Shown here piece by piece: positions 63,595 through 64,000 of a stretch of DNA of 64,000 nucleotides. The translations under genes and the position numbers were made by a program. The DNA lies in NCBI GenBank assembly GCA_041650635.1, contig JBAZKV010000008.1, forward strand, positions 2,253 through 66,252, in the 5' to 3' direction. A model generated the notes under the pieces. It did no database searches. It saw only the letters and a program-made list of their open reading frames with translations, and was not told where the DNA came from. Numbering within the stretch: position 1 is the stretch's first letter; each line of letters starts with the position of its first letter. The stretch is from Candidatus Margulisiibacteriota bacterium. Its GTDB lineage: Bacteria > Margulisbacteria > WOR-1 > JAKLHX01 > JBAZKV01.

Positions 63595-63669
63595 GGGCGC
63601 GTAGTTTAGTGGTAGAATGTCTCGTTTACACCGAGAAGGTCGCAGGTTCGATCCCTGCCGCGCCCACCA
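63595..63669 (+). tRNA. tRNA-Val (TAC), CCA encoded
   Basis: GGGCGCG/CGCGCCC acceptor, TCTCG-TTTACAC-CGAGA, GCAGG-TTCGATC-CCTGC, ACCA. Confidence 0.97.
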
Positions 63670-64000
63670 TTTTTTCTTCACAAACTATTGGTGTGCCGTT
63701 TTTATTGTCCGCAATTTTCTTCTCATCGATTATTTTTTCGGCGGCGGAATTTTGGCGGGTTTTTTTCGGGTGGGTGCAAAAAACTGTCTCCGTATTTTGT
63801 TTTGGCGCGCGCGCTTTTGTTATCGCAGAGCTATTAATCGACGCAGGCGAGCAATTTGCGCCGTAAAATAATACAACCTCTATGGCGTCTTTCGAATAAA
63901 GTATTTCCTTGATGTGCTCTTTCATGATCAGCCTTCTTTCCATTTTACCGTCAAATTTAGAAGCGTTAACAACGGTTTGGAGTATTTCCCGGGTCCGATC
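63626..64000 (-). CDS. Partial CDS: probable C-terminus of a large serine recombinase ending within tRNA-Val
   Basis: Frame is open to the right edge. ERRLIMKEHIKEILYSKDAIEVVLFY resembles a recombinase C-terminal motif; the last 14 aa are antisense tRNA. Confidence 0.5.
   Translation of the reverse strand, partial: DRTREILQTVVNASKFDGKMERRLIMKEHIKEILYSKDAIEVVLFYGANCSPASINSSAITKARAPKQNTETVFCTHPKKTRQNSAAEKIIDEKKIADNKNGTPIVCEEKMVGAAGIEPATFSV

Follow-up and report, generated by a model that had tools for sequence, protein, structure and literature searches.

Serine integrases are standard tools of genome engineering, and their directionality is thought to require a separate protein factor. Coding sequences that contain attP, and whose C-terminus is altered by integration, are known from myxophage Mx8 (IntP/IntX) and from the integration-dependent immunity of mycobacteriophages; both involve tyrosine integrases and are isolated cases rather than a family spread over many phyla. 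In the suicidal tyrosine integrases of the SSV type, attP lies within the open reading frame (ORF), tRNA genes are the targets and integration places the two parts of the integrase gene at either end of the element (Badel et al. 2020, PMC7253208). Disruption of the gene has been proposed as a means of directionality control, and the type was termed 'so far restricted to archaea' (PMC7253208). The ssrA islands of Dehalococcoides carry DsiB, a CcrB-like large serine recombinase (LSR) that is encoded on the reverse strand at attL and runs ∼70 bp into the tmRNA gene (McMurdie et al. 2011, PMC3146451). Their target is the T-loop of ssrA, with a 20-bp direct repeat, and they possess a six-gene module (the small serine recombinase DsiA, RecF-like, ParB, Mom and others); the authors speculated that dsiB is perhaps fully functional on the circular element only (PMC3146451). 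A self-splitting design is known mainly from archaeal tyrosine integrases, and the nearest parallels to the locus described here are the DsiB islands and the SSV-type integrases. Our search for literature joining suicidal integrases with serine recombinases returned nothing but one review of archaeal tyrosine recombinases.

The locus lies at the end of a 64,000-nt stretch of a Candidatus Margulisiibacteriota genome (the window; G000, contig C8, positions 2253–66252), beyond which C8 runs 1,931 bases further. Coordinates without a contig name are those of the window. The evidence taken together is best explained by this end being attL of an LSR island inserted in the CCA end of tRNA-Val(TAC), with the integrase gene split by integration, and we regard this as very probable. 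The LSR has the domain order (Resolvase, Recombinase, Zn ribbon with coiled coil) of the A118/LI, TP901-1, Bxb1, phiC31 and SPbeta SprA integrases and of the SCC recombinase CcrB, and shares with these enzymes the invariant catalytic Ser10, Arg8, a short core and the absence of long direct repeats. Unlike theirs, its target is the extreme 3′ end of a tRNA and its gene spans attP, and the protein has an extra disordered linker and a conserved C-terminal peptide; complete relatives also differ in having a second, inverted attP inside the element.

As in the DsiB islands, the LSR sits at attL and reads antisense into its target RNA gene, and its top curated (NCBIfam) match is CcrB, albeit below the cutoff of the model, a comparison that was also drawn for DsiB (PMC3146451). 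Unlike the ssrA islands, the Val island uses the CCA end of a tRNA with a 7-nt core (3–10 nt at the tRNA end across the family), and instead of the six-gene module it has a DprA-like gene and a small Cys-rich ORF, which by description set it apart from DsiB. The conserved exon at the far end and the internal inverted attP found here are unreported for the ssrA islands (PMC3146451). With the SSV type, the present LSR shares tRNA genes as targets, an attP within the ORF and gene parts at the two ends of the island. It is a serine recombinase without the tyrosine fold, however, and thus works alike without being a member of that type; moreover, whereas the SSV-type split leaves two inactive stumps, here the split takes away only ∼28 C-terminal codons and leaves all known domains together on one side.

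A defence island at the 3′ end of tRNA-Val(TAC)

The gene for tRNA-Val(TAC) lies at 63595–63669 on the + strand, as found by both ARAGORN and Rfam (RF00005, 71.7 bits). It is intact, encodes its own CCA and represents the B arm of attL. An Rfam scan of 2.7 kb around the junction found this tRNA alone, so the conserved arm next to it is without a known RNA family. Comparison with a sister genome of the same genus (G001) reveals the empty site, at which tRNA-Val(TAC) and tRNA-Val(CAC) are 4 nt apart, separated by TCTC; the 3′ end of tRNA-Val(TAC) is identical in the two genomes. The flanks of the empty site are 89–93% identical to C8 on one side and to C11, in reverse orientation, on the other. 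Since the match switches from C8 to C11, the island is located between C8:65921 and approximately C11:31283. The preliminary description had proposed an island that starts at this tRNA and reaches rightward, and the uninterrupted site in G001 bears this out. The insertion has parted tRNA-Val(CAC) from tRNA-Val(TAC) and from any promoter serving both.

The sequence CCACCAT (63664–63670) is all that attL (C8), attR (C11, reverse complement) and the empty attB of G001 have in common, and crossover takes place within this core. The duplicated tRNA-Val 3′ end that had been anticipated at the far boundary is absent; these 7 nt are the only repeat, as expected for a serine recombinase, and a search for a longer tRNA-Val 3′ repeat in the loci examined returned only chance words of 8–9 nt. 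In a DNA search of the same genome, the end of the element next to the core, the P′ arm (63670–63940), matched the tRNA-Ala and tRNA-Arg island ends at 86–88% identity.

The island leaves C8 and resumes on C11 with its middle unassembled; the two parts together give a minimum length of 25.3 kb. The C11 part (C11:31283–54341, to the contig end) has a GC content of 35–42%, compared with ∼50% elsewhere on this contig. Its cargo comprises a two-component system (a response regulator and a 7TM histidine kinase), a Dsr1 sirtuin defence gene in two ORFs, a type I restriction-modification system, a patatin-like protein and PDC candidate defence genes (PADLOC). The two Dsr1 ORFs overlap (L106:6565–10657 on C11): the 287-aa SIR2 part covers profile positions 18–262, and the second ORF, of 1082 aa, matches positions 532–1225, which suggests either a frameshift or a naturally split form. 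The end of the window contains the left boundary of a mobile island with defence cargo, which the LSR inserted at the end of tRNA-Val(TAC).

At this left edge, the LSR gene is accompanied only by a 74-aa Cys-rich ORF and a 176-aa DprA-like protein (PF02481), both upstream of it. The DprA-like gene (C8:67565–68092, minus strand, to the right of the window; L007:2063–2593) is of unusual composition, with 5.5% adenine in its coding strand versus 33% in the LSR gene, and the protein contains no Lys and a single Glu. The Cys-rich ORF (C8:67374–67598, minus strand; L007:1875–2099) overlaps the start of the LSR gene, has no match in Pfam or NCBIfam and is recognisable only in the copies on C8, C5 and C1; it is possibly a small regulator or a directionality factor.

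The recombinase gene and its C-terminal exon

The whole ORF, P0001, occupies C8:65881–67377 on the minus strand (window 63626–65125, running beyond the window end) and encodes 499 aa. A search of its upstream part for resolvase, recombinase and Zn-ribbon domains, as the preliminary description had advised, finds all three beyond the window on C8 (Pfam: Resolvase, PF00239, residues 3–153, 6e-38; Recombinase, PF07508, 1e-14; Zn_ribbon_recom, PF13408, 1e-9). Judged by all three domains the ORF is a large serine recombinase, and this domain content predicts that it recombines attP with attB. Residues Y6, T7, R8 and S10 are invariant in 52 relatives. Among PDB matches, P0001 aligns to the catalytic domain of the TP901-1 integrase and to the C-terminal domain of the A118 integrase (4kis).

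A close full-length homologue, P0007, was modelled with AlphaFold2 from a 52-row alignment (mean pLDDT 79.8). The model has long helices (325–355 and 375–404) followed by a β-hairpin at 405–420, with strands 405–410 and 414–420. The segment KEHIKEILYSKDAIEVVLFY (63863–63922, minus strand), which had been read by eye as the motif that follows the coiled coil in LSRs, corresponds in the model to this terminal hairpin. It belongs to the last folded part of the LSR in the window (63863–64000, minus strand), as judged by Pfam, PDB matches and the model. Between the hairpin and the tRNA lies a linker of 64 codons (63670–63862, minus strand), which is open, poorly conserved and predicted to be disordered (pLDDT ∼35 for the equivalent stretch of P0007).

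The minus-strand frame has indeed no stop from 64000 down to a TAA at 63626–63628, which is located within the anticodon loop of the tRNA and covers the first two anticodon bases (anticodon 63627–63629). Its final 14 residues (MVGAAGIEPATFSV) are encoded by the antisense of the 3′ 44 nt of tRNA-Val, as had also been described. The openness of the frame is beyond chance: the frame forms the last part of a gene of 499 aa, and the linker of the window stays open in just 3.4% of composition-preserving shuffles. The 14 codons and stop at 63626–63669 (minus strand) are an ORF end specific to the integrated state; they replace the conserved C-terminal exon, which is now at C11:31283–31368. We considered a functional peptide from the tRNA antisense (G-x-E-P) as a general feature and rejected it, since the frame relative to the T-loop is distributed 27:10:4 across loci.

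To rebuild attP, the P arm (C11) was joined to the P′ arm (C8) at the core and the LSR frame was read across. In the rebuilt Val attP, the frame runs through 28 more codons (C11:31283–31368) and ends in …SLIIPNTIHGCKKRDIGRL; the rebuilt attP sites of the tRNA-Lys and tRNA-Asn islands give the same terminal motif. Five attR exons from this genome vary chiefly through synonymous (such as AGG/CGA, CAC/CAT, GGC/GGA/GGT) or conservative substitutions, and the spacers between exon and core, at 38, 44 and 59 nt, differ by multiples of 3. The LSR gene therefore spans attP, and integration splits it and leaves the exon at the far end, since the frame crosses the rebuilt attP into a conserved peptide whose codons vary mainly synonymously between paralogues. 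It was thus correct that the ORF reads into the tRNA at an integrase attachment site, but this is not a side effect of abutting the site: the gene itself spans attP, with its last 28 codons on C11.

Uninterrupted ORFs bearing the motif occur naturally in the metagenome proteins P0007 and P0008 and, with a variant motif, in the CPR loci L061 and L078. A search of a 5.8-billion-protein collection with the last 44 residues of P0007 returned P0007 and P0008 only, and a metagenome scan with P0007 as the query did not return the contig that encodes it. In the model of P0007, the motif TISLIIP forms a strand within a 10-residue block of mean pLDDT 74. A zinc site formed by the tail and the exon (C/H pattern) was also considered; this candidate is weakened by the CPR variants, which have Ser for Cys. 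Internal spare copies of the exon in the same genome are decayed. The integrated LSR genes are all intact across ∼1.5 kb, and activity may therefore persist in the truncated protein.

Paralogous islands, inverted repeats and target motifs

The 1.67-Mb genome contains seven paralogous LSRs (56–68% identical to the window copy), which read into seven tRNAs, those for Val, Ala, Arg, Leu, Lys, Asn and Glu. The number of copies per genome ranges from 0 to 7 in 31 relatives, and a search of G001 found none. We collected 80 related loci from Margulisbacteria, Omnitrophota, CPR, Elusimicrobiota, Planctomycetota and other lineages (the LSR tree is a quick tree with SH-aLRT support). Where an antisense tRNA or tmRNA gene is close by, the ORF terminates inside it in 45 of 48 loci; one relative, L023, sits at a tmRNA gene. 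The LSR modules of the Leu (C1) and Lys (C2) islands are 92–93% identical in DNA, and their LSRs are nearly identical; the internal attP copies have the same core, GGCGCAG, and the targets are tRNA-Leu(TAA) and tRNA-Lys(CTT), respectively. In the Lys copy, a 1.6-kb insertion that adds two ORFs separates the LSR from the DprA-like gene.

We observed an 84-aa GIY-YIG-like ORF (L008:3108–3362) on C5, immediately upstream of tRNA-Ala(TGC), the site of another of the LSR islands. It is flanked by exact tRNA-Ala fragments (bases 1–26, 39–57 and 1–15) and by the intact tRNA-Ala.

In the four fully assembled paralogous islands, the LSR module is bracketed by an inverted repeat of 210–260 bp, the left arm of which corresponds to 63670–63940 (copy-against-copy and self-inverted BLAST). 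A second, shorter repeat brackets the cargo in the two islands for which both cargo ends were read. The two repeats together amount to an internal, inverted copy of attP. The first repeat occurs in at least 50 related loci. Numerous contigs end inside it, and the end of C8, ∼90 nt upstream of the DprA-like start, probably has the same cause. No contig continues C8, and for the Val island the assembly lacks both the right arm of the repeat and the internal attP. Two loci, L061 and L027, are flipped isomers, in which the LSR points away from the tRNA and reads via the internal attP into the motif. A 1.65-kb stretch of cargo that is 79% identical between the Leu and Val islands has opposite orientations in the two.

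The T-loop box of the tRNA, GTTCGA (63646–63651, + strand), is the proposed recognition motif of the recombinase in the B half-site, and the P′ half-site contains a T-loop-like motif, ACAAAC (63680–63685, + strand). Of 49 related loci, 37 have a P′ arm motif of the form NC[GA]AAC at a distance of 10–17 nt from the tRNA end, and in 35 of 37 the combined offset of T-loop box and NC[GA]AAC around the tRNA end is 30–32 nt (30 in the window copy). This near-constant offset gives attL a quasi-palindromic form, with its centre close to the tRNA 3′ end. A T-loop-like TTCGAACC is also present in the Val P arm, ∼4 nt further out, which fits the known offset between attP and attB half-sites of serine integrases. 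From these motifs, we infer that the LSR may recognise the universal T-loop box of tRNAs, mimicked in the arms of each element. Such recognition would explain how the paralogues come to occupy seven different tRNAs.

The flanks outside attR of the Lys (C2, ∼83300) and Asn (C22, ∼24130) islands contain TTCGACTC-type repeats, with two copies at the Lys flank. The repeats resemble an inverted T-loop box and may represent a B′ half-site or a genome-wide short repeat.

Proposed mechanism and alternative explanations

With the boundaries, the gene split and the conservation of the exon established by these comparisons, the following mechanism can be proposed. The LSR would insert the island between tRNA-Val(TAC) and the adjacent tRNA-Val(CAC). 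After the hairpin, a linker of ∼64 codons, predicted to be disordered and doubling as the P′ arm, runs into the crossover core. In the excised form, the frame would proceed into the P arm and end with the conserved peptide of ∼28 residues (…SLIIPNTIHGCKKRDIGRL); in the integrated form, the exon remains behind at the opposite island end, and the frame stops 14 codons into the antisense of the tRNA. Loss of the C-terminal peptide could alter or lower integrase activity. If the peptide modulates activity in this way, integration itself would set directionality, and the integration state would serve as a lock without a separate directionality factor. We rate the chances that exon loss acts as such a lock as about even. 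That it has no effect is a doubtful but serious possibility, and that it switches the enzyme to an excision-competent form is unlikely.

The observed architecture might also arise at an ordinary boundary of an LSR island or prophage, where the protein ends functionally at the hairpin and reading through into the tRNA is merely the accident of a missing stop. All known LSR domains do lie upstream of the linker, which is predicted to be disordered and in which substitutions are near neutral (7 synonymous to 10 non-synonymous between the Ala and Arg copies, 3 to 10 between Leu and Lys). Yet in 44 of 47 related loci no stop interrupts the linker before the tRNA, where shuffling predicts 5.1. It is likewise open in all seven copies of this genome, whereas each of the four inverted pseudo-copies of the LSR tail in the same genome, a natural control, has premature stops. 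Together with a conserved exon that is in frame across attP and with unsplit ORFs that occur naturally, this leaves very little credence for an accidental read-through. We find it improbable, if less so, that the far-end exon is kept as DNA, either as a binding site in the P arm or as an outward tRNA promoter, with the frame a by-product and the integrase unaffected. The antisense of the exon (C11:31283–31368) reads TTG-N17-TATAAT, directed out of the island at tRNA-Val(CAC), a gene deprived of its upstream partner and promoter region, and part of the exon conservation could therefore be at the DNA level; the T-loop-like TTCGAACC of the Val P arm points the same way. However, a promoter consensus scan at attR did not call this site, and amino acids are kept despite synonymous and multi-base codon changes, also in the would-be spacer and upstream of the would-be −35 element. 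The frame is maintained while the distance to the core varies by multiples of 3, the motif is 38–59 nt from the core and thus outside the usual LSR half-site, and it is predicted as a β-strand of moderate confidence between segments of low confidence.

An LSR that belongs to a resident switch, flipping segments bounded by inverted repeats to vary gene expression without any mobile island, would account for the 210–260-bp repeats in the four complete islands and at least 50 related loci, for the flipped isomers L061 and L027 and for the reversed 1.65-kb cargo stretch of the Leu and Val islands. It is difficult to reconcile with the empty site in G001, with an LSR copy number of 0–7 among the 31 relatives and no copy found in G001, with the foreign composition of the cargo and with insertions at many different tRNAs, and we give such a switch hardly any credence. 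Inversion may well occur as a property of the mobile element.

Returning to the self-splitting integrase, we tentatively extend the proposal to a multi-phylum family of bacterial serine integrases, in which the enzyme would recognise the T-loop, the gene would span attP, exon loss would set directionality and the spare inverted attP would give rise to split and intact forms, as in L061 and L027; we hold this wider reading to be possible, at somewhat less than even odds.

The seven islands hold much of the defence repertoire of an uncultivated Margulisbacteria-like lineage and explain several breaks in its assembly. If the proposal is true, an integration state that rewrites the C-terminus of the enzyme itself would be a new form of directionality control, and the reading of a sequence found in every tRNA gene would be a new principle of retargeting. 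The 'suicidal integrase' design (PMC7253208) would then extend to bacteria and to the other recombinase superfamily, and these enzymes would be the equivalent, among serine recombinases, of the suicidal integrases of archaea, with a rescue route built into the element.
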